A DNA stretch of 64,000 nucleotides from contig QZKQ01000131.1 of the NCBI GenBank assembly GCA_003599535.1, forward strand, positions 22,612-86,611, given 5' to 3'. Each line of letters begins with the position of its first letter. Positions within the stretch are counted from its first letter, which is position 1. The notes under the pieces were generated by a model, which saw only the letters and a program-made list of their open reading frames with translations, was not told where the DNA came from and did not search any database. Of the stretch, positions 30,445-48,653 are shown one piece after another. Position numbers and translations under genes: made by a program. This DNA comes from Candidatus Zixiibacteriota bacterium (lineage in GTDB: Bacteria; Electryoneota; B3-LCP).

Positions 30445-30511
30445 GCGCAATCTTTTGCACTTGTGGTTTCTGGAAAGTTATCCGGAACCGATAAGGTGCA
30501 AAACATTGCGC
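30445..30511. promoter_or_regulatory. 15-bp inverted repeat GCGCAATCTTTTGCA / TGCAAAACATTGCGC (45-bp spacer) upstream of paralog C. On the minus strand it would also act as a terminator after the BMC genes.
   Basis: The first arm carries the same 18-mer as 8212-8229. On the minus strand the hairpin is followed by U7 (plus-strand aaaaaaa at 30438-30444). Confidence 0.5.
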
Positions 30512-30592
30512 TGGGTTATCCTGGGGCACTGACATGATTTTCGCGCTGGTTATTCGCCGGTGGAGGCAGGCGCCAGCACCGGCTGGTACTGT

Positions 30593-31093: not shown

Positions 31094-31112
31094 GCTGGGT
31101 CCCGGCTATGGA

Positions 31113-31409
31113 TTATTCCACGTTGGGGTTATCGCGCTGCGGAAGGATGGATTCGACTTCGTAGTGCGGGCGCGGAATGACGTGCACCGACACCAGTTCT
31201 CCCACCTTTTCCGCGGCGGTGGCGCCGGCGTCCGTGGCCGCTTTGACCGCGCCGACGTCGCCGCGCACGAACACGGTCACGTAACCGCCACCGATCTTCT
31301 CCTTGCCGACCAACTGCACTTTGGCGGCTTTGACCATGGCGTCCGCCGCTTCGATGGCTGCGACCAGCCCCCGGGTCTCGATCATGCCCAGGGCTTCCAG
31401 GGTACGCAT
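31113..31409 (-). CDS. BMC-H shell protein
   Basis: [37 protein letters not shown] ... VHVIPRPH. About 98 aa from the ATG at 31409. Confidence 0.8.
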
Positions 31410-31642
31410 GGTATCACCAGGCATACAATCTCCAGTTAATTCCAGTTGTGGTTTGAACTAAAAATAACGATTTTATACATCAAAGTCAATGATTTATTGC
31501 AGGATGTTTGGAAGGAGAATTCAGGGTTGCGAGGTTCCATGGAGTCTCTCTCTACGTTCTATTTCTTAAGAATTTACTTGTTTTCGCGAGAACTTGGTGT
31601 TTAATTAGTTTCAACGAAGGAAAAAGGAGTTACTCATTTAGA

Positions 31643-33103
31643 ATGCGGCTAATAATCATCCTGTTAACGGTCATCGGTGGACTATGTCTGGCAGCGTCGG
31701 CTATAACCTCCGGGCTTTCCCTGCATCCCCGTGACATCGAACGTACCATTTCCCCTGATGGGATGCTGGATGCCATCGTGCATTATGCCCTTCCTGCACT
31801 GTCACCGGGTTTGGCTTTGGTCGGCATTTGTCTGCTGATTCTATCCGGCCTGTTTTACCTCCTCACTCGGGTTTTGGATCGTAACCCGGACTTCGGTGGG
31901 GCCAAATTCATCCTTCTGCTGATGATCGTACAAGCCTGCTTCGGATTAATCTATGCACACTACGCAGATCATAATCTTAATGATGACTCTCTCTGGTACC
32001 ATACTCAAGCCGGCAATATTGCTTCAGGCAAGCCGGTCGCCAACGAGGACGGAACTCCCACAACCTACTGGCCGATTGGGTATTCTTTGATTTTAGGTTT
32101 GTTCTACCGCTTGTTCGGCGCGAATGTCACCGTCGCTGAGGTATTAAATATATTTTTTGCAGCCGGCATCACTCTCTTTACCTACCTGATTGGCCGGACC
32201 CTATTCTCCGGCAAAGCCGCCCGCCAGGCAGCCTTGGTGATGGCGGCATGGCCATCCATAATCTTCTTCGTCATTCTGCCTTTCGCCGATCTGTTTTTAA
32301 CCTTTCTGGCTACGGTTATATTCTATTTATCCATTAAACCGGCCTCGCGCACCAATACTCTGCTACTCGGAATGATGGTCGGCTTGGCGACACTTACGAG
32401 GCCGACCTTTCTGTTTTTCCCCTTGGTGATCGCATTTTACCGGTTGCTGCGGGATCGGCAATGGAAGCCGGTGCTGGCGCAAACTGCGATTATCATCCTT
32501 ATAACTGAATTGATACTGCTGCCGTGGCAGATCCGCAATTATCGAGCCTTTGACGATTTTATCCTGGTCTCCACCAATGGCGGAATTCATGCCTGGATGG
32601 GCAATAATCCCCATGCCAGCGGAGGCTTCATCGGGTTGTGGATGTTTATTCCCGATTCGACCTACAAATGGATGAATCGCTCCCTAAATGAAGTCGAGCG
32701 CGAACAATACGCGTATCAGCAGGCCAAGACCTACATCAAGAGCGAACCCCTCCGGGCAATAGCTAACTGGCCCAAAAAGATCGTGTATTTATATTATCGT
32801 GACAGCAAATCTGTGACTTACGGCTTGGGAGATACCTATAAAATGCTCGCCCCTGTCGTGGTATGCGCGCTGATCATTATCGCTGAAGCCTATTATTTCA
32901 TTCTCGGCGCGGCCTTCCTGATCGTACTTCTTTTTTCCCTTCGCCGGCCTCCGTCACCATGGCTCTGGTTCGTGCTGGGAAGTGGTGTCTACTTTACGGC
33001 CATAAATCTGCCCTTTATCGCCGAAGGCCGCTACCATATGCCGCTGCTGCCGCTGTTTGCTCTGGTGGCTGTCACGGGGAAAGCCATCCAAAACACCAAA
33101 TAA
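31643..33103 (+). CDS. Glycosyltransferase family 39 (ArnT/PMT_2-like, GT-C fold) integral membrane protein
   Basis: About 12 TM segments. PMT_2-like core TYWPIGYSLILGLFYRLFG ... LFTYLIGRTLFSGKAARQAALVMAAWPS. Lower GC than surrounding genes. Confidence 0.65.
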   Translation: MRLIIILLTVIGGLCLAASAITSGLSLHPRDIERTISPDGMLDAIVHYALPALSPGLALVGICLLILSGLFYLLTRVLDRNPDFGGAKFILLLMIVQACFGLIYAHYADHNLNDDSLWYHTQAGNIASGKPVANEDGTPTTYWPIGYSLILGLFYRLFGANVTVAEVLNIFFAAGITLFTYLIGRTLFSGKAARQAALVMAAWPSIIFFVILPFADLFLTFLATVIFYLSIKPASRTNTLLLGMMVGLATLTRPTFLFFPLVIAFYRLLRDRQWKPVLAQTAIIILITELILLPWQIRNYRAFDDFILVSTNGGIHAWMGNNPHASGGFIGLWMFIPDSTYKWMNRSLNEVEREQYAYQQAKTYIKSEPLRAIANWPKKIVYLYYRDSKSVTYGLGDTYKMLAPVVVCALIIIAEAYYFILGAAFLIVLLFSLRRPPSPWLWFVLGSGVYFTAINLPFIAEGRYHMPLLPLFALVAVTGKAIQNTK

Positions 33104-33107
33104 AACC

Positions 33108-34649
33108 ATGATTCAACCTGAATCACCACCCGACCACTCTCATCGCGACCTGGCGCCAGACGCAGCGCAGAGCTCAATTCTGCGGTTGTCCTTTTGTCTC
33201 GCATCGATTGCCCTGGGCTTATTGTTGATTTGGGGAATCCTGGAATTCTCTGGTTTCAAAGTGCAAAAGCTTGAGGGGTTCCTGGCAGCTGATGGTTCAT
33301 TTGACGGCCCGGCATCCATGGCTATCCGCGCCATGAACATAGGATTGCCGGCGGCAGCGATAACCCTGTTGATTATCTCCGTGCTATGGCTGCTCTTTGA
33401 ACGATTTCATTGGAGTCCATTCCGGTTGCGGGAGAGATCTTTTCTCCTCTTCATCATCATCCTGAAATTGGGCCTCAGCCTGGCATATATTTATTCCATG
33501 CCTTATCAACCATGGACCGATGATCATTGGTATCTGACCGCTGCCCAGCATTTGTCACAAGGCATTAACCCTCATATCAACGGTCAACCCACCGCGCTTT
33601 GGCCTATCGGCTATCCCATGATCCTTTCTGTGTTTTTCCGAATATTTGGGGCTACGGTTATCGTTGCACAGTGGGTGAATGTATTGACTCTGGTAGGAAT
33701 AACCCTGTTGACCTATCACCTTGGTAAGGATCTCTTTGGAACCGCCACCGCCCGCCGCGCCGCACTGGTCATCGCGCTGATGCCGTCCCAGATCTTCTTC
33801 GCCTTGCCGATCATGTCAGACCCTCTTCAGGCTTTGCTGATGTTGGGTCTGATTTATTTAGCGATCAAACCCCTGAACAGGTGGAGAACCATTTCCATGG
33901 GATTGATCTTCGGATTTTCCATTCTGGTAAAACCGGTAATACTATTTTTTCCAGCCTTTTTGGCACTCTATTGGTATTGGAAAGGCGAACCCTTGAGAAG
34001 CACGATTTTTACTACGGCATGGATTCTAATACTGGGGATCATTACCGTTATTCCCTGGCAAATCCGCATGCAGCGCGACTTCGGCAGATTCGCCCTGGTT
34101 TCCACCCAGGGAGGACACAATATCTTGCAGGGAAATAATCCCCGGGCCAGTGGCGGAACCATGGACGTTCGCGATTTCGTCCCGGATAGCTTACTGAAAC
34201 GCTTCAGCACTCTGAATGAAGCGGAGCGTGATGCCCTGATGGCCCAAACAGGAATCGAGTGGATCAAAAATAATCCACTGTGGGCCATGCGACTCTGGAT
34301 TAAAAAATTCATAGTTCTCTTCTATGAAGACAGCAAATGTGTCTCGCGCAGTGTGCACCTCTCGTACGTAGATTTGCCCGCCGCAATGGTCGCGACGATG
34401 ATCTTCCTGACAGAAGGTTATTACTACGCCCTCGGCTTGGCTTTTCTGTTGGCTTCAGTGGGATTCCTGCGTCGGGAGCGGTTGACCGCCCGTTCCTGGT
34501 TGATTTACGGCACACTTCTCTACACCATCGCCATCCACTTGCCCTTCACCGCCGAAGGGCGTTACCATACGGTTCTCCTGCCCCTGTTCGCCATGATCGC
34601 GGTGTGGGCGATGAAGGAAACCACCTCGCGGCCGAAAAAAGCCGCCTGA
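33108..34649 (+). CDS. Glycosyltransferase family 39 (ArnT/PMT_2-like) integral membrane protein, paralog
   Basis: Paralogous to the previous gene (TALWPIGYPMILSVFFRIFG ... LLTYHLGKDLFGTATARRAALVIALMPS). Lower-GC region. Confidence 0.65.
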   Translation: MIQPESPPDHSHRDLAPDAAQSSILRLSFCLASIALGLLLIWGILEFSGFKVQKLEGFLAADGSFDGPASMAIRAMNIGLPAAAITLLIISVLWLLFERFHWSPFRLRERSFLLFIIILKLGLSLAYIYSMPYQPWTDDHWYLTAAQHLSQGINPHINGQPTALWPIGYPMILSVFFRIFGATVIVAQWVNVLTLVGITLLTYHLGKDLFGTATARRAALVIALMPSQIFFALPIMSDPLQALLMLGLIYLAIKPLNRWRTISMGLIFGFSILVKPVILFFPAFLALYWYWKGEPLRSTIFTTAWILILGIITVIPWQIRMQRDFGRFALVSTQGGHNILQGNNPRASGGTMDVRDFVPDSLLKRFSTLNEAERDALMAQTGIEWIKNNPLWAMRLWIKKFIVLFYEDSKCVSRSVHLSYVDLPAAMVATMIFLTEGYYYALGLAFLLASVGFLRRERLTARSWLIYGTLLYTIAIHLPFTAEGRYHTVLLPLFAMIAVWAMKETTSRPKKAA

Positions 34650-34893
34650 ACCGCCTCAATGTATCTCCTCCTGGACTTGCTCTGTTGCGCCAGTTCATTG
34701 TACTCTCCACTCCGCCGCCAGCGTAATCGCTTATCGCATTGATATATCATCCCTTACGCCAACAGCCCGATTTCCTCAAGGGTCTAAATTTAAAGCAAAA
34801 GTGTTGGATTTCCCCGAGGGGTGAAGTATATTTGTGGTACTTTCTGCCCGGGCGGAATCCATCTACTTTACCATAGTATTACTTGGGGGTATC

Positions 34894-35823
34894 ATGAAGA
34901 ACATCCTGGTGACCGGGGGGGCCGGTTATGTGGGCACGATGCTGGTGCCCATGCTGCTGGGGCGCGGTTACAAGGTCCGCGTCATGGATAACCTGATGTA
35001 CGGCGGCAAGGGGTTGCTGCCCTGCTTCGCTTCGAAAGATTTCGAATTCGTGAAGGGCGACGTGCGCAAGATCGAAGACGTGCGCAGCTCCCTGGACGGC
35101 ATGGACGCCGTCATCCACCTGGCCGCCATCGTCGGTTTCCCCGCCTGCAAGAAAGATCCGCAACTGGCCGAAGAAACCAATCACAAAGCTACGGTACTTC
35201 TGGAAGGCCTGCGCCACGACCGCCCGCTGATCTTCGCTTCCACCGGATCCAACTACGGCGCCCTGGTGGGCGACGTCTGCCGCGAAGATTCCCCCTTGAA
35301 TCCCCTGACCATCTATGGGTCCACCAAGACCGCCGCCGAGCAGTACCTGCTGAAGTGCGGTAACGTGGTGGTCTACCGCTACGCCACCGCCTATGGCCTG
35401 TCCTACCGCCAGCGGCTGGACCTGCTGATCAACGACTTCGTTTACCAGGCGGTCAAGAACCGCAACCTGATCATCTACGAGAAGTCCTTCAAGCGGACTT
35501 TCATCCACGTGCGCGACATCGCCGCCTCGCTGCTCTACGCCCTGGAACACTTCAACAAGATGCGCGACGAAGTGTTCAACTGCGGGTCCAACGACCAGAA
35601 TTTCAGCAAGGAAGAGGTCGCCCTGCTGATCCAGAAGCGGGTGAACTACTACCTGCACTTCGCGGAAATCGGCAAGGACGAGGACCAGCGCAACTACGAG
35701 GTATCCTACGAGAAGGTCAATAAGGCCGGATTCTTCACCACCGTGGGCATTGACGAGGGCATTGACGAGCTGATCCGTTCCATGGCCGTGGTCCAGGTGG
35801 TCAACGAATACAGCAACGTCTAA
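34894..35823 (+). CDS. NAD-dependent epimerase/dehydratase (extended SDR) acting on a nucleotide sugar
   Basis: ILVTGGAGYVG Rossmann motif. Catalytic YxxxK region (YGSTKTAAE). About 310 aa from the ATG at 34894. Confidence 0.7.
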   Translation: MKNILVTGGAGYVGTMLVPMLLGRGYKVRVMDNLMYGGKGLLPCFASKDFEFVKGDVRKIEDVRSSLDGMDAVIHLAAIVGFPACKKDPQLAEETNHKATVLLEGLRHDRPLIFASTGSNYGALVGDVCREDSPLNPLTIYGSTKTAAEQYLLKCGNVVVYRYATAYGLSYRQRLDLLINDFVYQAVKNRNLIIYEKSFKRTFIHVRDIAASLLYALEHFNKMRDEVFNCGSNDQNFSKEEVALLIQKRVNYYLHFAEIGKDEDQRNYEVSYEKVNKAGFFTTVGIDEGIDELIRSMAVVQVVNEYSNV

Positions 35824-35834
35824 AGGGGGCGGTC

Positions 35835-36788
35835 ATGGGATTCTGGAAGGGCAAGAACGTGGTGGTGACCGGGGGGTCGGGCTTCCTGGGCAGCCACGTG
35901 GTGGAAATATTGGAAGCGGAAGGGGCGCGAGTCACCGTGCCCCGCAAGCGCGATTTCAACCTGATGACGCTGGACGGCAGCCTGCGCTGTTTCCTGGAAG
36001 CCCGGCCGGACCTGGTCATCCACGGAGCGGCCTTCTACGGCGGGATCTGGATCAACCAGGTGCACCCGGGGCGGATTTACTACGAGAACCTGGTCATGGG
36101 AGCCAACGTCATCGAAGCCTGCCGCCTGGCCGGAGTGAAGAAGTTCGTGGGAGTGGGCACGGCCTGCTCCTATCCGGGCTATCTCGAAGGGCTGCTGTCC
36201 GAAGAGCGCCTGTGGGACGGCCCGCTGCACGACAGCGTGCGCAACTACGGCCTGACCAAGAAAATGATGCAGGTGCAGTGCTGGGCTTACCAGAAGCAGT
36301 ACGGCTTCAATGGCATCCACCTGATCCTGACCAACCTGTACGGTCCGCGGGATTCCTACAATCCCCAGCGGTCGCACGTGGTGGCGGCGCTGATCCGCAA
36401 GTTCGTGGAAGCGGAAATGACCCGGGCGCCGGAAGTGGAAGTCTGGGGCACGGGCAAGCCCATTCGCGAATTCCTGTACGTGCAGGACTGCGCCGAAGGT
36501 ATCGTGCGGGCCGCCGAAGTCTACGACGAGGTCGAACCGCTGAACCTTGGCACCGGCCTGGGCACCAGCATCCGCGAACTGACCGACCTGACCCACGAGC
36601 TGTCCGGCTTCCAGGGGCAGATCCGCTGGAACGCCGACAAGCCCGACGGCCAGATGGTGAAAATCCTGGACGTGTCCAAAATGAAGAAGGCGCTGGGCTG
36701 GCAACCGCCCACCAGCCTGCGGGACGGCCTGGAAAAGACCATCCACTGGTACCGCGAGCACAAGGCGGAAGCGGACGAGAGATTTTAG
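35835..36788 (+). CDS. fcl: GDP-L-fucose synthase (GDP-4-keto-6-deoxy-D-mannose 3,5-epimerase/4-reductase)
   Basis: VVTGGSGFLGSH, NLYGPRDSYNP, VWGTGKPIREFLYV. These are typical Fcl/WcaG motifs. Confidence 0.8.
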   Translation: MGFWKGKNVVVTGGSGFLGSHVVEILEAEGARVTVPRKRDFNLMTLDGSLRCFLEARPDLVIHGAAFYGGIWINQVHPGRIYYENLVMGANVIEACRLAGVKKFVGVGTACSYPGYLEGLLSEERLWDGPLHDSVRNYGLTKKMMQVQCWAYQKQYGFNGIHLILTNLYGPRDSYNPQRSHVVAALIRKFVEAEMTRAPEVEVWGTGKPIREFLYVQDCAEGIVRAAEVYDEVEPLNLGTGLGTSIRELTDLTHELSGFQGQIRWNADKPDGQMVKILDVSKMKKALGWQPPTSLRDGLEKTIHWYREHKAEADERF

Positions 36789-37157
36789 CGGTAAGCTTTA
36801 AGCTGTAAGCTGTAAGCGAACAGGGCGGCCCGGTGGCCGCCCGCTTTTATGTTACGCGTAGGGGTGGGGTTTAGCTTGTAGGGCGGACTAAGCGGCGGAG
36901 CACCGGATCCAACTTTGTTCGATGGAATTGATCCGCCGCGCAGTCCGCCGTGTGTTTCCCCCCTCACCCAGCCCCTCCACTCGTGTCATTGCGAGCGAAG
37001 CGAAGCAATCTTCGCCCCTCGCCCACCCCTAAAGGAGTAGGCTACGGCTAAAATGCAAAAGCCCCGTAAACGGGGCTCATTAGATGCGAGATGCGAGAAA
37101 GGGGCGGCCACACCGGGCCGCCCCTACTAACGACTAACGACCAACGACTAACGACTA
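36789..37157. repeat. Structured intergenic element between convergent fcl and the SBBP gene: 7-mer tandem repeats at both ends, nested inverted repeats, several terminator hairpins
   Basis: (GTAAGCT)x4 at 36792-36819. Terminator GGGCGGCCCGGUGGCCGCCC+UUUUAU at ~36822-36850. Inverted repeat taggggtggg (36859-36868) / cccaccccta (37023-37032). Long hairpin 36882-36949. Minus-strand terminators at 37056-37076 and 37100-37124. (TAACGAC)x4 at 37127-37154. Confidence 0.6.
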
Positions 37158-38456
37158 TTTCAGCAGCACGATCTTCTGCACCTGCGACACCTCCCCCGCC
37201 GTCAGTCTCACCAAATACACCCCCGACGGCAGCCCCGTCCCATCGAAACTCACCTCGTGCGATCCCGCCGGGTACCATGCCTCCCCCTGTAGGGGCGGGC
37301 CGATGTGCCCGCCCCCGGGGCGACCACATAGGATCGCCCCTACATTCCGTCCTCCCGTGTCGAACACCTCCAGCCTCACATACCCCGCCGCCGGCAGGCC
37401 GAAGCGGAGGGTGGTCACCGGATTAAACGGATTGGGGTAAACGGACAGGGTGAACTCCTCGGCCACGACGAAGCGCCACGCAGTGGCCCTTGGTGGTGGC
37501 CCTCCAGGCTCGCCGGGGAAGGGGTCGCCCCAATTTTCATTGTTATAGACGAAGGCGCCGCTCCCGTCCGTGGCGGACTTGGTGAAGGTGAAGTAGCTGG
37601 AATCCCAGATGCTGCCGGATGCGTAGATCCCGGCATAGCCCACGTAGGTGTATTCCCCGGGAGGATTGGTTCCGGCCACGTTCTGGGCGCGGCCAAAGGT
37701 GAGGTCGGCGCCAACAGGCACATTGGTCAGGCGGAAGGGCCCCAGAATCCCTATCCAGTTCCCGTCGGGGGAATACCAGCCGCTCCACACCTGGAATTCT
37801 TGAGTCAGGCCGGAGAGGTTCTGAATCCGGACTTGGTAATCGAAGCTGCCGCCGGTGGCGGGGATGACGAGGGGCGGGTTCACGGGCGTCAGGGTGGTCT
37901 CCAGGGGTTGCCCCCCAGCCTCGGTCTTGATCAGGTAAACATCCCAACTACCTGCGCCGCAGGACCACGTCTCTCCAGCGATGACGTACCCACCGTCCGC
38001 CGTCTGTTGCACGCTGCGACCAAAATCACCACTGCTCCCGCCGAATGCCTGCTGCCAAAGCGGGTTGCCGGAGGCGTCGGTCTTGACCAGGTAAACATTA
38101 TAACTGCCAGCGCCGTAGGGCCATGTCTCTCCGGCGATGACATACCCGCCGTCCGTGGTCTGCTGCACGCTGTAACCATAATCATAATAGCTCCCGCCGA
38201 AGGTGCGCTGCCAGACCGGGTTTCCCTCCGCGTCGGTCTTGACCAGGTAAACGTCATGGTAGCCTAAGCCGAAGGACCAGGTGTATCCGGCGATGATGTA
38301 CCCGCCGTCCGTAGTCTGCTCCACGCTGGAACCATAATCATAACTGCTCCCGCCGAAGGTGCGCGTCCAGAGCGTATCGGGCGGCTGGGCGCCGGCCCCC
38401 GCAGCCAGCCCCAGCCCTCCCACCGCCAGCAGACTGATCCATAATGATTTCTTCAC
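37155..38456 (-). CDS. Secreted protein with three SBBP-type beta-propeller repeats and a T9SS C-terminal domain
   Basis: Signal peptide. Three ~48-aa repeats of FGGSSYDYGxSVQQTxDGGYxIAGETW ... DVYLVKTD. C-terminus YPNPFNPVTTLRF ... GVYLVRLTAGEVSQVQKIVLLK. Confidence 0.75.
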   Translation of the reverse strand: MKKSLWISLLAVGGLGLAAGAGAQPPDTLWTRTFGGSSYDYGSSVEQTTDGGYIIAGYTWSFGLGYHDVYLVKTDAEGNPVWQRTFGGSYYDYGYSVQQTTDGGYVIAGETWPYGAGSYNVYLVKTDASGNPLWQQAFGGSSGDFGRSVQQTADGGYVIAGETWSCGAGSWDVYLIKTEAGGQPLETTLTPVNPPLVIPATGGSFDYQVRIQNLSGLTQEFQVWSGWYSPDGNWIGILGPFRLTNVPVGADLTFGRAQNVAGTNPPGEYTYVGYAGIYASGSIWDSSYFTFTKSATDGSGAFVYNNENWGDPFPGEPGGPPPRATAWRFVVAEEFTLSVYPNPFNPVTTLRFGLPAAGYVRLEVFDTGGRNVGAILCGRPGGGHIGPPLQGEAWYPAGSHEVSFDGTGLPSGVYLVRLTAGEVSQVQKIVLLK

Positions 38457-39565: not shown

Positions 39566-40936
39566 ATGTTCATCGACTCCCACGCCCACCTGGATTTCCC
39601 TGAACTGAAGCCCCACCTGGACGCGGTCCTGGCCAACGCCCGCATGGCCGGCGTCACCCACATCCTGACGGTGGGCATTGACGGCGCCACCAACCAGGCG
39701 GCGTACGATATCGCCCGGGCGCACGAAAGCGTGTACGCCTCGGCGGGGTGGCACCCCCACGACGTCTCCAGGGCCGACGCCGGGCTGGAACGCCACCTGG
39801 AAGATTTCCTGTCGCGCCCCAAGGTCGTGGCCCTGGGCGAAGCGGGGCTGGACTACTACCGCGACCTCTCCCCGCGGGACACCCAGCGGGAAGTCTTCGC
39901 CCGCATTGTCCGGCTGGCCCGGCGGCTGGACCGGCCGCTGATCGTCCACTGCCGCGACGCCTTCCCCGACACGTTTGAGATCCTGCATCGCGAGGGCGAA
40001 GGGCAGGTCAAGGGGGTGTTCCACTGCTTTTCCGGCGGGCCGGACGAGCTGCGCAAAGCGCTGCACCTGGGCTTCTTCGTCTCGTTTACCGGCAACATCA
40101 CCTACAAGAACACGGCCCTCCTCCCCACCCTGCAGGCCGCTCCAGTGGACCGCCTGCTGCTGGAAACCGACTGCCCCTTCATGACCCCGCATCCGCACCG
40201 GGGCAAACGCAACGAACCGGCCTACGTGCCCCTGGTGGCGGCCAAAATTGCTGAAGTCAAGGGCCTGTCGGTGGAGGACGTGGCCCGCATTACCCGCTAC
40301 AACACCTGGCGGCTGTTCGGTATCGGCGAAGCCCCCGAGCAGCGGTTCGTCTATCCCATCCGCAATTCGCTCTACGTGGCCCTGACCTCCCGCTGCACCA
40401 ACGACTGCCGTTTCTGCCCCCGGCACGTGCATCCGGTGGTCAAGGGGCATTATATCGGCATGACGGAAGCCGAAGAGCCATCCCCCGACCAGGTCATCGC
40501 CGCGCTGTCGGACCTGGGGAATTACGACGAAGTGGTCTTCTGCGGGTTCGGCGAACCGACCATCCGCCTGGAAGAGTTGAAGCAGATTGCCCGGTGGGTA
40601 AAAGGACAGGGCAGGAAGGTGCGGCTGGACACCAACGGCCAGGCCAACCTGATCCACGGCCGGGACATCGTCCCCGAACTGGCGGGGTTGGTAGACGCCG
40701 TCTCCATCAGCTTGAACGAGCACCGCGCCGACCTGTACCAGGCCCTGGTGCACAGCGAGTTTGGGGAGGCCGCCTTTCAGGCGCTGCTGGATTTCGCCCG
40801 GCGGTGCGTGGAATTGCTGCCCGAAGTGACGCTGTCTGTGGTGTCGTATCCGGGAGTGGACCTGGAGGCGGCGCGGAAGGTGGCCGAAGGCACCGGGGCG
40901 AAGTTCCGGGTGCGGGAATACAACGAGGTTGGGTAA
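39566..40936 (+). CDS. Fusion protein: TatD-family metal-dependent hydrolase (N) plus TatD-associated radical SAM-like domain (C)
   Basis: MFIDSHAHLDF, GLDYYRD, ETDCPF (TatD). Then SRCTNDCRFCPRH (CxxxCxxC) and a ~190-aa partial radical-SAM fold. Confidence 0.7.
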   Translation: MFIDSHAHLDFPELKPHLDAVLANARMAGVTHILTVGIDGATNQAAYDIARAHESVYASAGWHPHDVSRADAGLERHLEDFLSRPKVVALGEAGLDYYRDLSPRDTQREVFARIVRLARRLDRPLIVHCRDAFPDTFEILHREGEGQVKGVFHCFSGGPDELRKALHLGFFVSFTGNITYKNTALLPTLQAAPVDRLLLETDCPFMTPHPHRGKRNEPAYVPLVAAKIAEVKGLSVEDVARITRYNTWRLFGIGEAPEQRFVYPIRNSLYVALTSRCTNDCRFCPRHVHPVVKGHYIGMTEAEEPSPDQVIAALSDLGNYDEVVFCGFGEPTIRLEELKQIARWVKGQGRKVRLDTNGQANLIHGRDIVPELAGLVDAVSISLNEHRADLYQALVHSEFGEAAFQALLDFARRCVELLPEVTLSVVSYPGVDLEAARKVAEGTGAKFRVREYNEVG

Positions 40937-40945
40937 AAAAAGAGG

Positions 40946-41152
40946 CGCCGGGGGTGGACCCGGCGCTTCTGCAGGGGTAGTGCTCTTCAGTACACGCCAT
41001 CAATCGTCAATATCGAGATCCTTTCTGTGGGAGGTGACGTTTTCCTGTCCTCTCTCTTATCGGAACTTCACAGTGAAACTTTAGCTTTCCTGCAAAATAT
41101 TTTTATCTCACCCGAAAAGCAAAGGGCGCGAGAATTCGCGCCCTTTGTTTGT
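40946..41152. terminator. Pair of bidirectional intrinsic terminators between the convergent TatD fusion and the cytochrome operon
   Basis: GCGCCGGGGGUGGACCCGGCGC (40952-40973), followed by UUCUGC on the plus strand and by U7 on the minus strand (plus-strand aaaaaaa at 40945-40951). AGGGCGCGAGAAUUCGCGCCCU (41120-41141) is flanked by U-rich tracts on both strands. Confidence 0.6.
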
Positions 41153-41168: not shown

Positions 41169-43217
41169 CTATTTCCGGCTGGCGGTCTGCTTTTCCGGGG
41201 CGGGTTGCAGCCGGTCTTCGACTTCTTCCAGCTTCTTCTGTAGCGTGGAGTAAATTTCTGTCGCGGCATCGTAGTTGTGCAGCGGTCCGGCTTCTTTCAG
41301 GATCTTGGCGCGGCGCTCGATCTCATCCAGGGCTTTGGCCTGATCCACAGTTTTGCGGCCGTTCTGCTGAGCGGATTCCAGCGTGGCACGCACTGATTCC
41401 AACTTCACCGCCAGGCGTTCCTGGAGTTGAGTCAATTCCTGGGACCACTGTGTCAACATGGCGGCGTAATCTCGGCTGTGACAGTCGGCGCATCGGTCGC
41501 CCACACCCTCCAGAGTCAGCGGCTTGGTGTGATCGTGGCAACCGTCGCAGGTAACCTCGGCCGCAGCCATGACATCGGGTCTCTCTTCCAGGCCCAGTTC
41601 ATGGCTGGCGCCGCGGTAGAGATCATCCTGCCGCCAGTGACAGGTGACGCAGGCGATAGGATAATCACCATGGTGGCATTCCTTACAGGATTGCCGCTCC
41701 ACGACTCCCAGGCGATGATTATCCGGTTCGTGGCAACTGGTACAGGGCTGCTCCAGATCCTGCGTGTGCATGGTATGAGGGAAAGCCATGCGTTCATAGG
41801 TCACTTCATCCGGCCGGGGAATGCGGGAATGGCACAGGGATTGGCAGTAACCGTCGGATTGCCCCAGGAGCTGGCCCAAGTCCATCTGTTCGCTTAAACC
41901 CAGGGCCGGGCGGGCGGCTTTCAGACGATCTCCGGATCGTTTCAGCAGGTCAATGGCGTAGAAAGGGTTATGCGTCAGCCGGCCGTCTTTTACGAAATCG
42001 TAATTATACCGTGCCTCTTCCACCGCCACGCGGGCTGTGGAAACGTCCCGGCCGCGTGCTTCCGCAGCGCGCAGGGCGCTTTCCGTTTGCCGCAGGTGCG
42101 GCTCCAGGGAGCTCAGCATCACCGGCGCCAGACGAATCCAGTCATCCAGCATCAGGTCATAGCCTGGACCATGGCACTTGAGACAGGATTCCCGCCGCGT
42201 CTTCATGGCCAGTGCTCCGAACTCCACCTCCCCAATGGCTTCACCCTTGCTGTGGCACCCGTCGCAGGAAACCTGCGCCAGAAACATCTTGGCCGGCTCA
42301 TCCGGAATGCCCTGGCCGCCGGCGCCGAAATATAACTGCTTTTCCGGCGTGTGCAGTTTGACGTGGCACACTTCACAGCGCACTTCCAGAGAACTGATCA
42401 ATCCGAACTTCCCGTGTTCGATCTGTCCATGGCAGCGGAAGCAATCGATATGCTCGCCGTTGACATGGACTTCGTGCACCAGTGGGAAGTCGCCAAAACT
42501 CTCCTGGCGCGATACGTGACAGGTGAAGCAGGCCTCCTGAGGCACGGCGGCGTCACCTTTCAGCACGTCCAGGTGGCATTCACTGCACTGCAAGCCAATA
42601 TCGACATACGACTGGTGGCTGAACTGGAAACCCTGGTGATCGACGGATTCCGTGGGATTGCCGTGACAATTCTGGCAGCCGCTCTGGGACTGACCCGGCT
42701 GGGTGCCTTTGAAATGGCACAGGAAGCAGGAACTGTGGTCGACCTGCAGGTAGGATCCCGGCACACGATGGTTATGGCAGGTGGTGCAATGCAGCTCCAC
42801 ACCTCGCATCGGCTTGGAAAGGTGAACGCTGTGATCGAACGAAATATCCCGTTCGAAGTGCGCTTCGGTGTCCAGAGTCTGGTTTTCGTGGCAGTTCAGA
42901 CAGGATTCGTCCTTTACCTCCGTGGTGGGCCGCCAATCGCGGGAAGTGACTACGTAATCCAGGGTCCAGTTGCTGAGCAGATGCCGCCGGTCCGGGTGGC
43001 AGGCCACGCAGGCCACGTCGCGGTGGTTGGAGTGCGCCCAAAGATTGTAGTAAGGACGCATGGTGTGGCAACTTATGCAGGTATCCGGGTCGCTGCTGAT
43101 GAAGTAATAGCCGATATTCAGGAGCAGGAACAGTCCCAGCAACGAGACGATGATCAGTAGAATTTGGCGGTAGTAGGTGGCCAACCCTCGGATGATCGCC
43201 CGCAGAAAATCCCTCAT
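41169..43217 (-). CDS. Membrane-anchored multiheme c-type cytochrome, about 17-18 haem sites: NapC/NirT/CymA-like N-terminus fused to a long polyheme extension
   Basis: N-terminal TM, then CISCH...CVACH (NapC-type). 17 CxxCH plus one CxxxCH motif in total (CLNCH, CTTCH, CFLCH, CQNCH, CSECH, CFTCH, CFRCH, CEVCH, CDGCH, CLKCH, CQSLCH, CTSCH, CKECH, CVTCH, CDGCH, CADCH). Confidence 0.8.
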
Positions 43218-44173
43218 GAGCGCCCTCCCCGGGAGGCCTTCCGCTGGGATTGTCCGGAAGATTCCTGGTTTTTCCGTTGCATAATCTCCTCGTACTCCAG
43301 TGGATGCTCATCCAGCATCTCTTCCTTGGAGATCTTGCCGGTGATCCAGGTTTTAGACATGGGGAATTTGTGGGGGTTCAGGTGCACGTTGTAGAAGTGC
43401 CAAATGATGATGGCCAGAGTGGCCAGCAGGGCTTCATCGGAATGGGCTTCCTTGGCGATATCCAGGAAGAACTTGGGCAGGAACTGCATCGTGACGCTCT
43501 CAAACCAGAGCAGCGAGCCGGAGCCGATCATGATGATCATGCCCCAATATACCGCCCAGTAGTCGAACTTTTCGATGTAACTGAAGCGACCGAAGCGGGG
43601 CTTTTGATCGCTCTTGCCCAGGTAGTATTTCAGTTGCTGCACGTAATCCAGGGCGTCTTGAAGTTTCGGCAGGAGCAGAAGAAAATCGCGTCGGCCTGCC
43701 TTGGACAGGATCGTGTAAACTACGTGGAACACGCCTACAAACGCCAGCGCCGTGGCTGCGATGCGGTGGATGATAGCGGAGCTTTCAATGCCACCCAGCA
43801 GGTTAATGACGAAGTGGGAGAGGCCGGCTTCATGGAATTTCAGCGGCAGGCCGGTGATGATCAGGGCGATGATCGAGGTCAGCATGGTGACATGCTGTAA
43901 TCTCAGGTTCAGCGACAGGCGGACAAACTCTTCCGGCTCCTCTTTCGGCATTTTCACCGGCGGGGCAGGCTGGGGCACGGGGGCGGGACGTACCTGGGCC
44001 GCCAGGCGTTCGGCTTGCTGGTCGAGGTTCACGTCCAGCCCGGAAATCATCTCATCCAGGCGCGCGTCACTCAGTTCGCTGTCGGGAACCCCGCGAGCCT
44101 GCATCTTTTCGCGCAGAGCCCGGCGCAGGGCTTCCCGCAACACATGATCGGAGTTGGAATTGCTGGCAGTCAT
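43214..44173 (-). CDS. Di-heme b-type cytochrome membrane subunit (HyaC/FdnI-like, PF01292-type)
   Basis: About 4-5 TM with conserved His in helices ([28 protein letters not shown]). Start taken at MTASN (44173). The upstream ORF extension overlaps the preceding gene. Confidence 0.65.
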
Positions 44174-44193
44174 GCAGTGAAGGTTATTCCAGG

Positions 44194-45237
44194 TTAATGG
44201 TTGCCTTTTCGATGGCCCAGGAGGCGCTTGGACAGGTCCAGGATAATATTCCCGATCAACCCCACTAAGGTCAGGATGGTCAGCCACTTGAAAAAGCTGG
44301 CGACGTAGTAGATGATGCCCGCCTCGGGGCTCTTGGCGTTGACGTGGATCTTGCCTTTGGCCCAATTGGCGTTGGCCTGGGGGTGACACTTGCCGCAGGT
44401 TTTGGGGATGTTGGCCGGGTGCACCAACGATTCCGGGTCGGTGGGCGGCAGGATGTCATGAGCCCCATGGCAGGAGGCGCAGTTGGCGGCCGTGGTCGAA
44501 CCGAACTGGCTGGCGATGCCGTGAAAACTTTCCGTGTAAGATTCGACCTGTTCGGTGGTCAGTCCCGCGGGCCCCACGATGGTCTCGGCGGCATGGCAGT
44601 GCCCGCAGGTCTCGGGAATATTGGCGGAGAAAACCTGCGAGGAAGGAGCCAGAGGCGACGCGATGGTGTGCTCGCCATGACAATCCGTACAGGTAGGAGT
44701 GCTGTCATGCCCTTCCTTTAACAGCTTTCCGTGGATGGAGTGGGTGTAATGCGAGTAAATCTCCAGGTGACAGCGACCGCATAGATCCGGGATGTTCTGC
44801 CGGTGCAAGGGAGATTCGGCCGACTGCGGCGGATGGATATTATGGGCTCCGTGGCAGTTCTGACACAGGGGCGCCTTACGGTTGCCGGATCGAGCGGCTT
44901 GCCCGTGGACGCTCTCACGGTATTGGTCGTAAACGGGCAGTTCCGGGGCGCCGGCCAGGTTGCCGATGTAGTGACAGGAGGTGCAGTCTACCCGTTGCAA
45001 CCCGGGCTGGTGGGGGATTTCCACCACGTCGCGATGGCAGTCAGTGCATTCGTGGCGGGGATGGACGGATTGAGCCAGAGAATCCGGAGGCACATGCAGT
45101 GACACCCGCACGGAATCGGCTCCCACCACGTGAAAATTAGGCTTGGCATGGCAAATTTCGCATTTTTGCACCGGAGCGGCAAGCGCGACCGTCAGGCCAA
45201 TCGGGATCAGGGCAAAGCAGAGCAACCATCGTTTCAT
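44194..45237 (-). CDS. Periplasmic nine-haem c-type cytochrome with C-terminal TM anchor
   Basis: Signal peptide. 9 CxxCH (CEICH, CTDCH, CTSCH, CQNCH, CGRCH, CTDCH, CGHCH, CASCH, CGKCH). Repeated NIPxxCGxCH units. Hydrophobic C-terminus. Confidence 0.8.
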
Positions 45238-45917
45238 GCCGCGTTCTCCCCTCCTGAGGACACGCGGCGGTACTCGGCCGGATGCTTCTCCTTTAACTCG
45301 TCCATGGTGATGCGCCCCGTGATCCAGCTCATGTTCATGGGGAAATTGCCCGGCGCCAGATGTACATTGTACAGGTGCCAGAACAGCAGGATGATGAAGA
45401 TCAGCAGCCCCTCATAGCCGTGAATGACCAGGGTTAAATCCACCAGCCACTTAGGTGCTATTGCCACGGCTTGAGGCCCCATCCACAGTATCAGACCGGT
45501 CACTGACAGGCTGATGACGCCCAGGATGACGCCGAAGTACTGCACTTTTTGAAAGTAGGTGAAGCGATCCCATTCCGGCGGGGCTGCGGTTTTGCCCAAG
45601 TCATACCGGAAGCTCTGGAATCCCTTGCCCAAGTCGCCCTTGCGGGGTAGCATCGCCTGAAAGAGCTCCTGGCCACGGCGGGAGATCAGGGTGTAGCCGT
45701 AATGGTAGATCGAAACCGCAATCAGGACCACTGCCGAAATGCGATGGATCAGGCCCCGGCCTTCCAGTCCCCCTTCCAGTTCGATCATGAACCGGCCCCA
45801 GTAGGTATCATGGTATCTCAGGGACAGCCCGGTCAAGGCCAGGGTAATCAGGCTAAGCGCCAGAATCACATGTTGGACGCGTTCCGACACGGTGAAGCGA
45901 AGCACTGTCGCGGGCAT
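45234..45917 (-). CDS. Di-heme b-type cytochrome membrane subunit, paralog (HyaC/FdnI-like)
   Basis: ERVQHVILALSLITLALTG (PF01292 TM1 pattern), HRISAVVLIAVSIYHYGY, WHLYNVHLAPGNFP. Start taken at MPATVL (45917). Confidence 0.65.
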   Translation of the reverse strand: MPATVLRFTVSERVQHVILALSLITLALTGLSLRYHDTYWGRFMIELEGGLEGRGLIHRISAVVLIAVSIYHYGYTLISRRGQELFQAMLPRKGDLGKGFQSFRYDLGKTAAPPEWDRFTYFQKVQYFGVILGVISLSVTGLILWMGPQAVAIAPKWLVDLTLVIHGYEGLLIFIILLFWHLYNVHLAPGNFPMNMSWITGRITMDELKEKHPAEYRRVSSGGENAA

Positions 45918-45918
45918 C

Positions 45919-47154
45919 CTACCGTCCCTTCCTTTCCCGGCGCCGGCGGGCGGAGCCGGTCTGCTCGATAACAATGTAAGCGACGAAGATAACCATTAGC
46001 CCGCCGATAAAGATGTAGTAGAACTGCCGCACTATGAATACTCCTGGGGAGTTTTCAAAGGTGGCCGCGACGTGCATCTTGCCCTCGGTAAATTTCTCAC
46101 CGGCATTGGGATGGCACCGGCCGCAGGTGTGGGCCAGATTGGCGGGATGGATGGTGGAAGCCGGATCGGAGGGTGGCAGCACCTTGTGGAATCCGTGGCA
46201 GGAGGCGCAGTTGGCTACCAGGGTGCGGCCGTAGTGGTTGGCCACGCCGTGATAGCTATCCTTGTATGTCGCGAAACGATCCGCGGACAGGCCGTACTTA
46301 TCGGTCAACTGCACATTGCCGTGGCACTTTCCGCAGGTTTCCGGGACGTTGGCGGGAGCTACCCGGGAAGAGGCCATATCCGGTGCTTCGATAGTGTGTT
46401 CGCCGTGACAGTCCGTGCAGACGGGGGAATCGGTCACCCCTTTGGCCAGCTCCTGTCCATGGATTGAGGTGCGGTAATCTTCGACAACCTGCGCATGGCA
46501 TTGGCCGCAGGTGTGGGGAATTTGCGGTTTGTGGACCGGCGAATCGGGATCATCGGCGGGCAGGATGTGATGGCTGCCGTGGCAGTCGACGCATTCCGCC
46601 ACGCTGGTCTGGCCTTCCTGCATCATGCGGCCGTGGACGCTCTTCTGGTAGGCTTTGACGATCACGCCGCTGCCGGCATGGACCTCCTGGTCGGCATGGC
46701 AGCTCAAGCAGGCAGCGTTGATATTGCGGCGATGGGTGCGGGAGGTGGGATCATCTGACGCCTTCACGCCGTGATAGCCGTGGCAGGCGACGCAGGCTGG
46801 GCCGGCGGGGCGGTCGGACCGCACCAGTTCGGCGTGTGACGACTGGGCCAATTCACGACCTTCCAGTGCATGGCAGGAGGCACAGTCTACGGGATTTTTT
46901 TCCGGGGGGTGCGGCCACTGGGTTACACGGGCCAGTTCGCGGTGGCAGAAGGTGCAGCCGATCTCCGCATGGACAGATTGACGATGGCTTTCCACGTCAA
47001 TAAAGAGGGAGATTTTGCCGCCGGAGGAGTCCGTTTTGGCAAGCTGGGGTTGGCCGTGACATTCCTGGCACTGACTATCCGGAGGCTGCGCGGAAGTCAT
47101 CAGGGGCAGAAACAACCATCCCAGCAGCAGGAGGGTTCTTGAGCCTGTGAGCAT
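45919..47154 (-). CDS. Periplasmic eleven-haem c-type cytochrome with C-terminal TM anchor (paralog of 44194-45237)
   Basis: Signal peptide. 11 CxxCH (CQECH, CTFCH, CASCH, CVACH, CLSCH, CVDCH, CGQCH, CTDCH, CGKCH, CASCH, CGRCH). Hydrophobic C-terminal helix. Confidence 0.8.
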   Translation of the reverse strand: MLTGSRTLLLLGWLFLPLMTSAQPPDSQCQECHGQPQLAKTDSSGGKISLFIDVESHRQSVHAEIGCTFCHRELARVTQWPHPPEKNPVDCASCHALEGRELAQSSHAELVRSDRPAGPACVACHGYHGVKASDDPTSRTHRRNINAACLSCHADQEVHAGSGVIVKAYQKSVHGRMMQEGQTSVAECVDCHGSHHILPADDPDSPVHKPQIPHTCGQCHAQVVEDYRTSIHGQELAKGVTDSPVCTDCHGEHTIEAPDMASSRVAPANVPETCGKCHGNVQLTDKYGLSADRFATYKDSYHGVANHYGRTLVANCASCHGFHKVLPPSDPASTIHPANLAHTCGRCHPNAGEKFTEGKMHVAATFENSPGVFIVRQFYYIFIGGLMVIFVAYIVIEQTGSARRRRERKGR

Positions 47155-47178
47155 GAAGGTCCGTTGTATTTGGCCAGA

Positions 47179-47883
47179 TTAAATTCCGACAGAAAGGGAA
47201 AACTGGAAAAACGGGCTGATCAGATCCAACTCCTGAGCGCCATAGAGATCATTGCCGTTTATCATCCAGTTATCCGCGCCCAGCTTCACCAGCGGGACCT
47301 CCACACTACCGCTGATCGCCAGCCAGGTGGCGGGATAAAAGCGCGCTCCCACGCGGGGTTGCGGCCAGAAAAAGCGTTGTTCCATTTCGGCGGTCAGATT
47401 GGTGGCAGAATCCGAGGGCGCCGGTTGGAACTGTCCCCAGACGTCATCCCACCCCACCGGGCTGGTATTGCGCTCCAGCCGAACCGAAGCCCAGCCCGCT
47501 CCCACGGATGCCCCGGCATACGCTTCGAAGCGAGGGATGTCCAGGAAGCGGTATTCGATCAGCAGGCCCAACAGAGTCAGATTGAAACTGGCTTCCCGGG
47601 CCACCCCGCCGGACAGGGTTTCAACGCTGTTGCCTCCCGTCAGCACCGTCACTCCCACGCGCAACGGGTCCGACAGGTGAGCGAAGCCCTGCGCGCCGTA
47701 CAGCAGCAGGGGATCATCCAATTCGGGCATTCCCAAGGCCCGAAGTTCCTCATTTACCGGCCCCAGGTCCGGATTGTAGATTGCGAAATTAAAACTGGCA
47801 GCCCCCCGGTAACCGTAAGAAATGGCCTGCGCGGCCATGCACGGTAAGAAAATCACAAGCAGAAGCAGAGTGATCTTTCGCAT
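47179..47883 (-). CDS. Secreted hypothetical protein, probably a small outer-membrane beta-barrel; first gene of the cytochrome operon
   Basis: Signal peptide MRKITLLLLVIFLPCMAAQA. Alternating hydrophobic beta-strand-like segments. No known-family motif. Confidence 0.4.
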   Translation of the reverse strand: MRKITLLLLVIFLPCMAAQAISYGYRGAASFNFAIYNPDLGPVNEELRALGMPELDDPLLLYGAQGFAHLSDPLRVGVTVLTGGNSVETLSGGVAREASFNLTLLGLLIEYRFLDIPRFEAYAGASVGAGWASVRLERNTSPVGWDDVWGQFQPAPSDSATNLTAEMEQRFFWPQPRVGARFYPATWLAISGSVEVPLVKLGADNWMINGNDLYGAQELDLISPFFQFSLSVGI

Positions 47884-47927
47884 TGCTCCTCCAGGTAGTT
47901 ATAATTTAGGAAAAGAAATTCGATAAG

Positions 47928-48653
47928 TCAAGTCTTGAGTTGTTGAATTTCCGACATCTTCAGGTCCCGCCAGTGGCCCGGAGCCAGGTCTCCTAAGGTC
48001 AAACTACCCAGGCGCACGCGGTGGAGCTTCTCGATGGGCAGGTCAATGGCCTTCAAGGTGCGGCGGATCTGCCGCTTGCGGCCTTCGGTCAGGATGACCT
48101 TCAGGCGCCTCTCCCCCATCTTCTCGGTGACCTTGAAGCGAGAGAAGCCATCTTCGATGGTGAGGCCGGCGCGCAGCCGTTCCAGGTCCGCCTCGGTGAT
48201 GGGGCGGCCGGTATGGATGTGGTACTCCCGTTCGATCTGGTAGGAAGGGTGAATGAGCTTCTGGACCAGCTCGCCGTCATCGGTCAGCAGGATCAGCCCG
48301 GAAGTGTCGCGGTCCAGGCGGCCGGCGGGGAAAACGCGCTGGGGAACTTTCACCAGGTCCAGGATGGTCTGGCCTCGTTCGCGGCTGGGCTGGCAGGTGC
48401 TCAGCACTCCCACCGGCTTATTGAAGATGATGTAGCGGTACTCCTGGAGCGGCTTGACCAGGTGGCCCCGGACCTTGACTTCCACGTGATCCGGGTTGAT
48501 GCGGGTCTCGGGAGTGTTTACCACCTGTCCGTTAACCTGCACCCAGCCGGCGCGGATGTACTCCTCGCTCTTGCGGCGCGAGGCCACTCCGCAGCGGGCC
48601 AGGTACTTGGCCAGCTTTTCCGTCTGTTCGATAACGTCTGACACAGAATACAT
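47928..48653 (-). CDS. rRNA pseudouridine synthase, RsuA/RluB family (S4 domain plus catalytic domain)
   Basis: S4 motif YLARCGVASRR. Catalytic FPAGRLDRDTSGLILLT. Confidence 0.8.
   Translation of the reverse strand: MYSVSDVIEQTEKLAKYLARCGVASRRKSEEYIRAGWVQVNGQVVNTPETRINPDHVEVKVRGHLVKPLQEYRYIIFNKPVGVLSTCQPSRERGQTILDLVKVPQRVFPAGRLDRDTSGLILLTDDGELVQKLIHPSYQIEREYHIHTGRPITEADLERLRAGLTIEDGFSRFKVTEKMGERRLKVILTEGRKRQIRRTLKAIDLPIEKLHRVRLGSLTLGDLAPGHWRDLKMSEIQQLKT

Follow-up and report, generated by a model that had tools for sequence, protein, structure and literature searches.

Among the steps of extracellular electron transfer, the passage of electrons into or out of the quinone pool is understood least, except in Geobacter and Shewanella. 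The question is raised here by six genes of Candidatus Zixiibacteriota bacterium (assembly GCA_003599535.1, contig QZKQ01000131.1), which lie on the minus strand at positions 41169-47883 of the window, that is, of the whole 64,000-nucleotide stretch of DNA that was analysed (contig positions 22,612 to 86,611). We call the genes g1 to g6 in the order of their transcription. The original prediction, made from the letters alone, read them as a small outer-membrane barrel (g1), two modules of a multihaem cytochrome c with a di-haem cytochrome b (g2-g3 and g4-g5) and a NapC-fused cytochrome (g6), which together export electrons from menaquinol. Which proteins are encoded, do they belong together, and in which direction would they move electrons?

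We found that the feature is a widespread, mis-annotated respiratory cassette and not a unique oddity. We suggest that g2-g6 encode a cofactor-poor, all-haem inner-membrane assembly that joins a haem wire in the periplasm to the (mena)quinone pool, with electron export as the favoured direction, a reading that we rate slightly better than evenly balanced.

Results

Gene content and the multihaem cytochromes c

The layout of six tightly packed genes on one strand was confirmed, with all open reading frames (ORFs) at the coordinates first assigned to them. With the likeliest starts, 24 nt separate g1 from g2, 1 nt g2 from g3 and 20 nt g4 from g5, and the g3-g4 and g5-g6 junctions are 4-nt overlaps. 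The haem counts held as well: CxxCH motifs number 11 in g2, 9 in g4 and 17 in g6, which has one CxxxCH in addition, so that the "about 16" motifs predicted beyond the first two of g6 come to 18 sites in all, not every one of them CxxCH. CxxCH is missing altogether from the remaining long ORFs of the window, approximately 50 in number, so this clustering is not due to chance. The cofactors of g2-g6 are 38 c haems plus four predicted b haems, and nothing else.

g2 (45919-47154, minus strand) and g4 (44194-45237, minus strand) encode predicted periplasmic cytochromes c of 411 aa with 11 haems and of 347 aa with nine; both have a signal peptide and are anchored at the C-terminus. The anchoring, on which the modular reading depended, was borne out by hydropathy (membrane helices at residues 372-390 of g2 and 307-325 of g4). 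g2 matches the Pfam families Cytochrom_c3_2, Cytochrome_C7, Paired_CXXCH_1 and NrfB-like, and g2 and g4 align with each other at z = 80 above shuffles, which by sequence makes them paralogues. Among 36 homologues of g2 there are 11 invariant non-motif histidines for the 11 motifs, and among 64 homologues of g4 nine conserved ones for the nine motifs (eight invariant, one at 98%). Because the number of conserved non-motif histidines equals that of the haems and neither family has a conserved methionine, both proteins appear to be pure bis-His electron wires. Their last haem motif lies approximately 25 residues ahead of the anchor helix, a position that would suit an exchange of electrons with the b haem on the periplasmic side.

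PDB sequence searches with the c subunits and with a c-b fusion from a related locus gave weak matches only (28pb_A, NrfB and ActA-like chains of alternative complex III). The closest solved chain, 28pb_A, has 278 aa and is named only 'Cytochrome c' in its entry (E 2e-6 with g2, 3e-5 with that fusion).

The di-haem cytochromes b

g3 (45234-45917, minus strand, 227 aa) is a predicted di-haem cytochrome b of the FdnI/HydC type (PF01292 E 5.4e-13, TIGR01583 E 5e-13) and g5 (43214-44173, minus strand, 319 aa) one of the FdnI type (PF01292 E 2e-10). The families given in the original prediction thus stand, and its gene extents do not: the longest ORFs overshoot, to 246 aa for g3 (up to 45974) and 391 aa for g5 (up to 44389). 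Homologues and start context favour ATG 45917, 1 nt past the g2 stop codon, as the true start of g3, and ATG 44173 as that of g5. The PF01292 scores of 49.6 bits (g3) and 41.2 bits (g5) exceed the gathering cut-off of 30.1, and the FdnI equivalog models match both proteins under their equivalog cut-offs.

Loss of the bis-His ligands would have spoken against this assignment, and they are retained. All four ligand histidines of FdnI (H18, H57, H155 and H169) have counterparts in helix 1 (H16 of g3, H94 of g5), helix 2 (H58, H136) and helix 4 (H166 and H181, H244 and H259), the correspondence in helices 1 and 2 being by position only. In helix 4, the g3 histidines align with H155 and H169 of FdnI, which is also the PDB match (1kqf_C, E 6.7e-5). 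H16, H58, H72, H166, H181 and H186 are 100% conserved in 53 g3-like sequences from related loci. Among 82 g5-like sequences, H136, H244 and H259 reach 100% and H94 95%, with H150 and H264 within the 95-100% range. The additional conserved histidines (H72 and H186 of g3, H150 and H264 of g5) would lie in helices 2 and 4, near where these reach the cytoplasm.

Four hydropathy peaks in g3 correspond to four membrane helices; g5 has two peaks over the threshold, and its other two helices are inferred by alignment with g3. A poorly conserved cytoplasmic extension of approximately 85 aa precedes the g5 core. The homologues of g5 have 300-340 aa and share 50-65% identity across phyla, and 3120 relatives were found at E <= 1e-10, nearly all of them named 'formate dehydrogenase subunit gamma' by annotation pipelines. 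By its overlap with the next gene, g5 is predicted to be translationally coupled to g6.

The 18-haem cytochrome g6

g6 (41169-43217, minus strand) encodes a 682-aa cytochrome c, N-terminally anchored in the type-II manner, with 18 haem sites and an NrfH-like head according to CxxCH count, hydropathy and profiles. A 100% identical entry from a Candidatus Zixiibacteriota metagenome-assembled genome (MAG) is annotated as a hypothetical protein. The NapC/NrfH-type start ascribed to it was supported: a membrane helix (residues 19-37) is followed by four haem motifs at 47, 70, 106 and 144, haem 1 has the form CXXCHXM (C47-I-S-C-H-T-M53, with the methionine in 77 of 88 relatives), and NrfH is the best match of the head by sequence. 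TIGR03153 (NrfH) aligns over model positions 4-134 of 138 at E 8.7e-9, with 35.5 bits against a cut-off of 134, and PF03264 gives 16.7 bits, under its curated cut-off of 24.1. Many more distant members of the g6 family carry a precomputed PF03264 match; g6, though no curated member, is for this reason likely related to NapC/NirT/NrfH at the superfamily level. The top Foldseek match of the g6 model is NrfH (2j7a_C, 114 columns) with a probability of 0.97 but an E-value of 0.37, and no global match was found in the fold search.

In an alignment of 88 sequences, each of the 18 haem sites is kept in at least 98%; the 18th is CX3CH in 68 relatives and CXXCH in 20. Other conserved residues are M311 (88/88), K170 (87/88) and the His-Asn pairs H416-N417 and H647-N648. 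Fourteen conserved non-motif histidines and two methionines leave about two haems lacking an obvious His/Met distal ligand, and such haems occur in NrfH also. A module of a haem block and a subsequent three-helix bundle is repeated in tandem, at residues ~243-440 and 478-670 (z = 12-18), and each bundle carries an invariant His-Asn. Neither CxxCK nor another known catalytic haem motif was found in the cytochromes of the window. From these features, g6 defines a putative new 18-haem, NrfH-headed family with tandem haem-block/helix-bundle modules.

Residue 87 of g6 (approximately 42957-42959), in the stretch after haem 2, is Asp; 66 of the 88 relatives have Lys or Arg here (Lys in 45, Arg in 21), and a conserved lysine of NrfH falls in a comparable stretch.

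Conservation of the cluster

A scan of one genome per species with a 7-sequence g6 alignment as query (a 15-sequence alignment was too divergent) detected a g6 relative in 356 species genomes. Locus-level comparison covered the 80 best of these, all MAGs of uncultured organisms, giving 82-84 loci depending on the analysis. Their labels span at least ten phyla (Zixibacteria-like, Deferrimicrobiaceae/'Deltaproteobacteria', Acidobacteriota, Methylomirabilota, Latescibacterota, Gemmatimonadota, Poribacteria, Calditrichota, Eisenbacteria and Aminicenantia), and the carriers come chiefly from groundwater, soils and sediments.

The order c11-b-c9-b-N, where N is the g6 homologue and the numbers are haems, recurs in most of 84 loci. 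Many loci have in addition, upstream of this set, a fused c11-b protein of approximately 700 aa that combines a signal peptide and 11 haems with an anchor helix and the four helices of the b part. Natural fusions within the same cluster argue, as Rosetta-stone evidence, that the c and b subunits interact. Minimal forms are c9-b-N and, in Methylomirabilis-type loci, [c13-b]-N. In 71 of 73 loci a b gene or fusion lies ahead of N and ends no more than 130 nt from it, the commonest arrangement being a 4-nt overlap. Once the cytochrome families were removed, family clustering with non-overlapping ORFs and coverage filters detected no other gene family beside the cluster in more than 11 of 82 loci, so that no catalytic subunit, iron-sulfur protein, NrfD-type subunit or porin is a conserved part of it.

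The original prediction had called the arrangement undescribed, to its author's knowledge, and unexpected in an FCB-type genome. The first claim fails, the cassette being widely conserved and its Deferrimicrobium homologue already described as 'cluster 1' (PMC9386147), and the second is overstated, since multihaem clusters have been reported in Zixibacteria (PMC3903129).

Several variants were observed among the related loci. In the Methylomirabilota loci L060, L062, L063, L064 and L069 the g6 homologue has 517 aa and 13 haems, ends after the first helix-bundle module and is followed by a second paralogue of approximately 735 aa with 16 haems. Deferrimicrobia-type loci (L001, at 12020-15864; L011, L014, L016, L020 and L041) have a second adjacent set downstream, often on the opposite strand, which consists of a g6-like NapC-type cytochrome of approximately 480-500 aa with 11 haems and a 9-haem cytochrome; the set of L001 also includes a bc-type cytochrome b (PF00033), and L004 has Rieske and cytochrome b genes upstream. 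Giant c-b fusions occur in L061 (3724-7071, 1115 aa, 23 CxxCH) and L081 (6514-9336, 940 aa, 19 CxxCH), echoing the range of 3-23 haems described for the CbcL/MtoC/MtrH family.

The barrel gene g1 and the surroundings of the operon

g1 (47179-47883, minus strand) encodes a secreted protein of 234 aa with a GGAGGAG ribosome-binding site and the signal peptide MRKITLLLLVIFLPCMAAQA. The fold given in the original prediction is upheld and its role as a partner is not. AlphaFold2 predicts an eight-stranded outer-membrane beta-barrel (pLDDT 92, pTM 0.83), and the top Foldseek matches are OmpA, OmpW, Ail and OmpX (E approximately 1e-5 to 1e-6). When g1-g6 were searched against all ORFs of 84 related loci, no homologue of g1 was detected; a word-based search returned g1 alone, and its relatives were obtained by a full HMMER scan. 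The nearest of these, P0122, with 37% identity, lies after the same pseudouridine synthase gene, in the same SelA-NfeD-Band7 backbone, which continues with a flagellin gene and has no cytochromes. In L002, L005 and L006, the closest syntenic relatives, the cytochrome operon directly follows the pseudouridine synthase gene, without g1. For both reasons we assign g1 to the backbone: it is best regarded as a gene adjacent to, and possibly co-transcribed with, the cytochrome genes rather than as a conserved component of the cytochrome system. At this site, the cytochrome genes themselves behave like a cassette, found in some genomes and missing from others.

A candidate sigma-70-like promoter precedes g1 (47903-47931, minus strand; TTGACT-17-TAAATT, 9 of 12 matches, by consensus match only), and a hairpin resembling an intrinsic terminator, with an 8-bp all-GC stem and a T-rich tail (CTCTTTTTTT), lies at 40945-40966 (minus strand), approximately 200 nt 3' of the g6 stop in a convergent intergenic region. 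No strong terminator was found between these two elements. G+C content at third codon positions (GC3) is 0.68-0.75 in the operon, compared to 0.77-0.86 in most flanking genes; it is equally low in g1 (0.70), for which reason we do not take it as evidence of transfer. On one side the operon is flanked by the housekeeping genes for SelA, NfeD, Band7 and the pseudouridine synthase, on the other by a TatD-radical SAM fusion and a PTS EIIA gene. No further cytochrome, porin-cytochrome or terminal reductase gene was found among the ORFs of the window.

The flanks also encode several secreted proteins with tails of the type IX secretion system. Four of them, all on the minus strand (5444-8095, 23491-25176, 25309-27759 and 37155-38456), match Por_Secre_tail, one of them just under the curated cut-off, and have ...VLLK as their last residues; they include an S8 subtilase, and two have InhA-like MAM domains. 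A fifth protein (27931-30327) has the same VLLK ending with no Por_Secre_tail match at E <= 0.001. The TatD-radical SAM gene (39566-40936, plus strand) is a single ORF of 456 aa in which a complete TatD-type hydrolase domain is fused to a radical SAM domain, and this fusion is kept at the syntenic position in L002 and on the contig of P0122. G+C content falls to 0.50-0.57 at 30000-36000, compared to approximately 0.60-0.66 elsewhere in the window; two ORFs of approximately 530 aa (31508-33103 and 33057-34649) with GC3 of 0.58-0.61 lie in this stretch, which may be a foreign island. A 103-aa ORF (31113-31424, minus strand) resembles, by eye, a bacterial microcompartment (BMC) shell domain at its start, and a BMC-domain gene is present on the P0122 contig as well.

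Discussion

Proposed function

The cluster is best explained by electron exchange of the quinone pool with the periplasm, and the analogy to Geobacter Cbc-type quinol oxidoreductases drawn in the original prediction holds. Each module, an anchored bis-His cytochrome c with 11 or nine haems plus an FdnI-type di-haem b, would be a split form of CbcL/MtoC/MtrH. FdnI-type b subunits have their quinone site at the cytoplasmic face and their redox partner in the periplasm, and NrfH, CymA and ImcH oxidise quinol at the periplasmic side, electroneutrally (CbcL, CbcBA and ImcH papers; bioRxiv 10.1101/2022.08.31.506072, 10.1101/2023.05.03.539133). By analogy with FdnI and CbcL, the quinone sites of the two modules would lie at the cytoplasmic side, with electrons crossing the membrane through the two b haems. 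g6 would add a quinol dehydrogenase head of the NrfH/CymA type with a periplasmic-side quinone site, its 14 added haems serving as a long wire; it is translationally coupled to the second b gene, would match the second b in stoichiometry and probably assembles with the c9:b pair. Most likely, menaquinol would be oxidised and electrons passed to periplasmic carriers and on to extracellular or periplasmic acceptors, for instance Fe(III), Mn(IV) or humics. Two kinds of quinone site would allow a wide range of acceptor potentials, comparable to that served separately by ImcH and CbcL in Geobacter.

We favour export because the characterised relatives CbcL, CbcBA, ImcH and CymA run in this direction and because multihaem cytochromes abound in the lineage that carries the homologous Deferrimicrobium cluster (PMC9386147). 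Several points weigh on the other side. The original prediction assumed export and allowed for an extracellular route. Neither the window nor the conserved neighbourhood of the cluster in the 82 loci contains a gene for an outer-membrane conduit or an extracellular cytochrome. FdnI-type b subunits and the CbcL/MtoC/MtrH family are found in Fe(III) reducers and in Fe(II) oxidisers, the latter with MtoC-type fusions, so the direction is not fixed by the architecture and was an assumption (PMC6295460). The profile scores of g6 against NrfH and NapC are under the curated cut-offs and the E-value of its NrfH fold match is not significant. The strict coupling of b to N suggests something more integrated than parallel quinol oxidases. 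Our literature searches found one passing description of the cluster (PMC9386147) and no functional study.

Alternative explanations

The same modules could run in reverse, with extracellular or periplasmic donors (Fe(II), humics in reduced form, a syntrophic partner or, via periplasmic cytochromes, H2 and formate) supplying electrons that would pass from the multihaem c subunits through the b haems to menaquinone at the cytoplasmic face, generating proton-motive force as formate dehydrogenase-N does. FdnI-type b subunits are indeed built like the quinone-reducing subunits of formate dehydrogenase-N and hydrogenase-1, CbcL/MtoC/MtrH homologues occur in the Mto clusters of Fe(II) oxidisers (PMC6295460), and the multihaem cluster of Zixibacteria RBG-1 was judged likelier to serve oxidation than reduction (PMC3903129). 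We nevertheless consider uptake unlikely: low-potential bis-His c haems suit low-potential donors only, the potential of Fe(II) at neutral pH is generally too high for menaquinone reduction unless energy is supplied, the NrfH-type heads of characterised relatives are mostly quinol oxidases, and no donor-side enzyme or porin is conserved nearby in the 82 loci. A second alternative is a haem-only redox loop (Q-loop), with c9, b and the 18-haem N forming one machine with quinone sites on opposite faces of the membrane. The c and b subunits would reduce quinone at the cytoplasmic side with low-potential periplasmic electrons, and g6 would reoxidise quinol at the periplasmic side and deliver to a higher-potential acceptor. 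A single operon would in this way encode a Mitchell loop with its two arms (2 H+ per 2 e-), analogous in function to formate dehydrogenase-N plus Nar or to a bc complex and made of haems only. Such a loop would make sense of the almost invariable co-encoding of a cytoplasmic-type (FdnI-like) and a periplasmic-type (NrfH-like) quinone module, of the b-to-N junction held across phyla in 71 of 73 loci, of the unusual conservation of the b subunit (50-65% identity across phyla) and of the Rieske/cytochrome b genes in some loci. Yet the sides of the quinone sites, the donor and the acceptor are purely inferential in it, and parallel oxidases tuned to different potentials, as Geobacter ImcH and CbcL are, explain the co-encoding too; we judge the loop to be fairly improbable. 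If true, the loop would conserve energy as electrons move between partners in the periplasm or outside the cell, and subsurface bacteria would widely have a hitherto overlooked counterpart, in function, of the bc1 complex and alternative complex III.

Two further explanations would give the operon a narrower task. It could anchor, and supply with electrons, a soluble reductase of the periplasm whose gene lies elsewhere and whose substrate is nitrite, sulfite, tetrathionate, selenite, arsenate or the like, after the manner of NrfH-NrfA and NapC-NapAB. We find this quite improbable, as the 82 loci have no conserved gene for a catalytic subunit next to the cluster, the cluster proteins lack CxxCK and other known catalytic haem motifs, and 38 haems look excessive for a simple anchor. 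Alternatively, g1 could be the outer-membrane part of a porin-cytochrome conduit belonging to the operon, for which its place immediately upstream, with a 24-nt gap and no strong terminator between, and its genuine outer-membrane barrel fold (AlphaFold2, Foldseek) could be cited. MtrB-type porins have approximately 26 strands, and an eight-stranded barrel of the OmpA/OmpW/OmpX type is too narrow for a cytochrome; together with the lack of a homologue in the related loci, the operon of L002, L005 and L006 that does without g1, and the nearest homologue in the same backbone beside a flagellin gene with no cytochromes, this effectively refutes the conduit explanation.

The cassette matters beyond this locus. 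Its wide occurrence makes it a candidate marker for redox cycling of metals or humics in uncultured lineages, where automatic annotation masks it by naming the b subunits 'formate dehydrogenase subunit gamma' and the cytochromes 'cytochrome c3 family protein'. Its modules are evidence that fusions of the CbcL type also exist in split form, and the obligate pairing of two kinds of quinone module poses a testable bioenergetic question.

Comparison with known systems

The modules are likened by architecture to the CbcL/MtoC/MtrH family (GSU0274 and relatives), in which a periplasmic bis-His c domain is joined through one anchor helix to an FdnI-type b. The periplasmic domain of CbcL has nine bis-His haems with a midpoint potential of -194 mV (PMC9129911). 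Its nine c haems compare with nine or 11 in the c subunits described here, and neither system has an iron-sulfur centre, flavin or molybdopterin. CbcL/MtoC/MtrH is a single c-b polypeptide, whereas in the window the c and b genes are separate, occur twice and share an operon with an 18-haem NrfH-type protein; fused proteins of the CbcL architecture with 11-23 haems are present in the homologous cluster of many related genomes. CbcBA (GSU0593-0594) resembles the modules in its split genes, with a four-helix b and a c subunit with a C-terminal anchor. For CbcBA, it was proposed that the anchor helix of CbcA supplies the fourth b-haem histidine (bioRxiv 10.1101/2021.04.15.440034); the anchor helices of g2 and g4 have no histidine and the b subunits hold all four ligands, which rules out modules of the CbcBA type. 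A link to formate dehydrogenase or hydrogenase was ruled out too, with no catalytic subunit anywhere in the cluster.

g6 shares with NrfH, CymA and NapC the single N-terminal helix followed by four CXXCH motifs, its CXXCHXM being NrfH-like, and differs from them in its 14 extra haems, its two three-helix-bundle inserts and its gene position after a cytochrome b. It is also similar to ImcH, an extended NapC/NrfH-like inner-membrane multihaem cytochrome with a role in extracellular respiration of Geobacter. ImcH (GSU3259) has three membrane helices, a membrane-adjacent CX3CH, 6-10 haems and approximately 500 aa (PMC6295460), and g6, with one helix, CXXCH as its first motif, 18 sites and 682 aa, is not its orthologue. 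In Desulfuromonas acetexigens, the homologues of ImcH and CbcL have consecutive accession numbers and both were significantly expressed with an electrode as acceptor (PMC12133095). The matches of g6 to OcwA of Thermincola potens (6i5b) and to the NrfA/octahaem nitrite reductase fold span only approximately 160-185 residues; OcwA is a cell-surface protein of a Gram-positive bacterium, and g6 lacks the catalytic CxxCK.

'Cluster 1' of Candidatus Deferrimicrobium borealis, with four multihaem cytochromes of 9-16 CxxCH and two four-helix cytochromes b (PMC9386147), appears to be the homologous cluster, and the loci of Deferrimicrobiaceae MAGs read [c11-b] c11 b c9 b N16. It was proposed for Fe(III) reduction, with the 16-haem protein as the outer-membrane terminal reductase (PMC9386147). 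We suggest that an inner-membrane location of this protein is more likely, because the members of its family begin with a membrane helix and have a head like that of NrfH. Mco of anaerobic methanotrophic archaea (ANME), a VhtC-type cytochrome b with a 7- or 11-haem cytochrome, was proposed to be a membrane-carrier:cytochrome c oxidoreductase (PMC9012536) and similarly repurposes a cytochrome b of the hydrogenase/formate dehydrogenase type with a multihaem partner; it differs in being archaeal, in using methanophenazine and in having no NrfH-type partner. Porin-cytochrome conduits (MtrAB/Pcc) have no counterpart here, given that g1 is eight-stranded and unconserved and that no other barrel gene is conserved nearby.

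Taken together, the pairing of a hydrogenase- or formate dehydrogenase-type cytochrome b with a multihaem cytochrome c as a quinol:cytochrome oxidoreductase is known already from CbcL and CbcBA and has been proposed for Mco, and what is new here is its split and duplicated form, the 18-haem NrfH-headed family and the conserved coupling of b to N in MAGs from many phyla.

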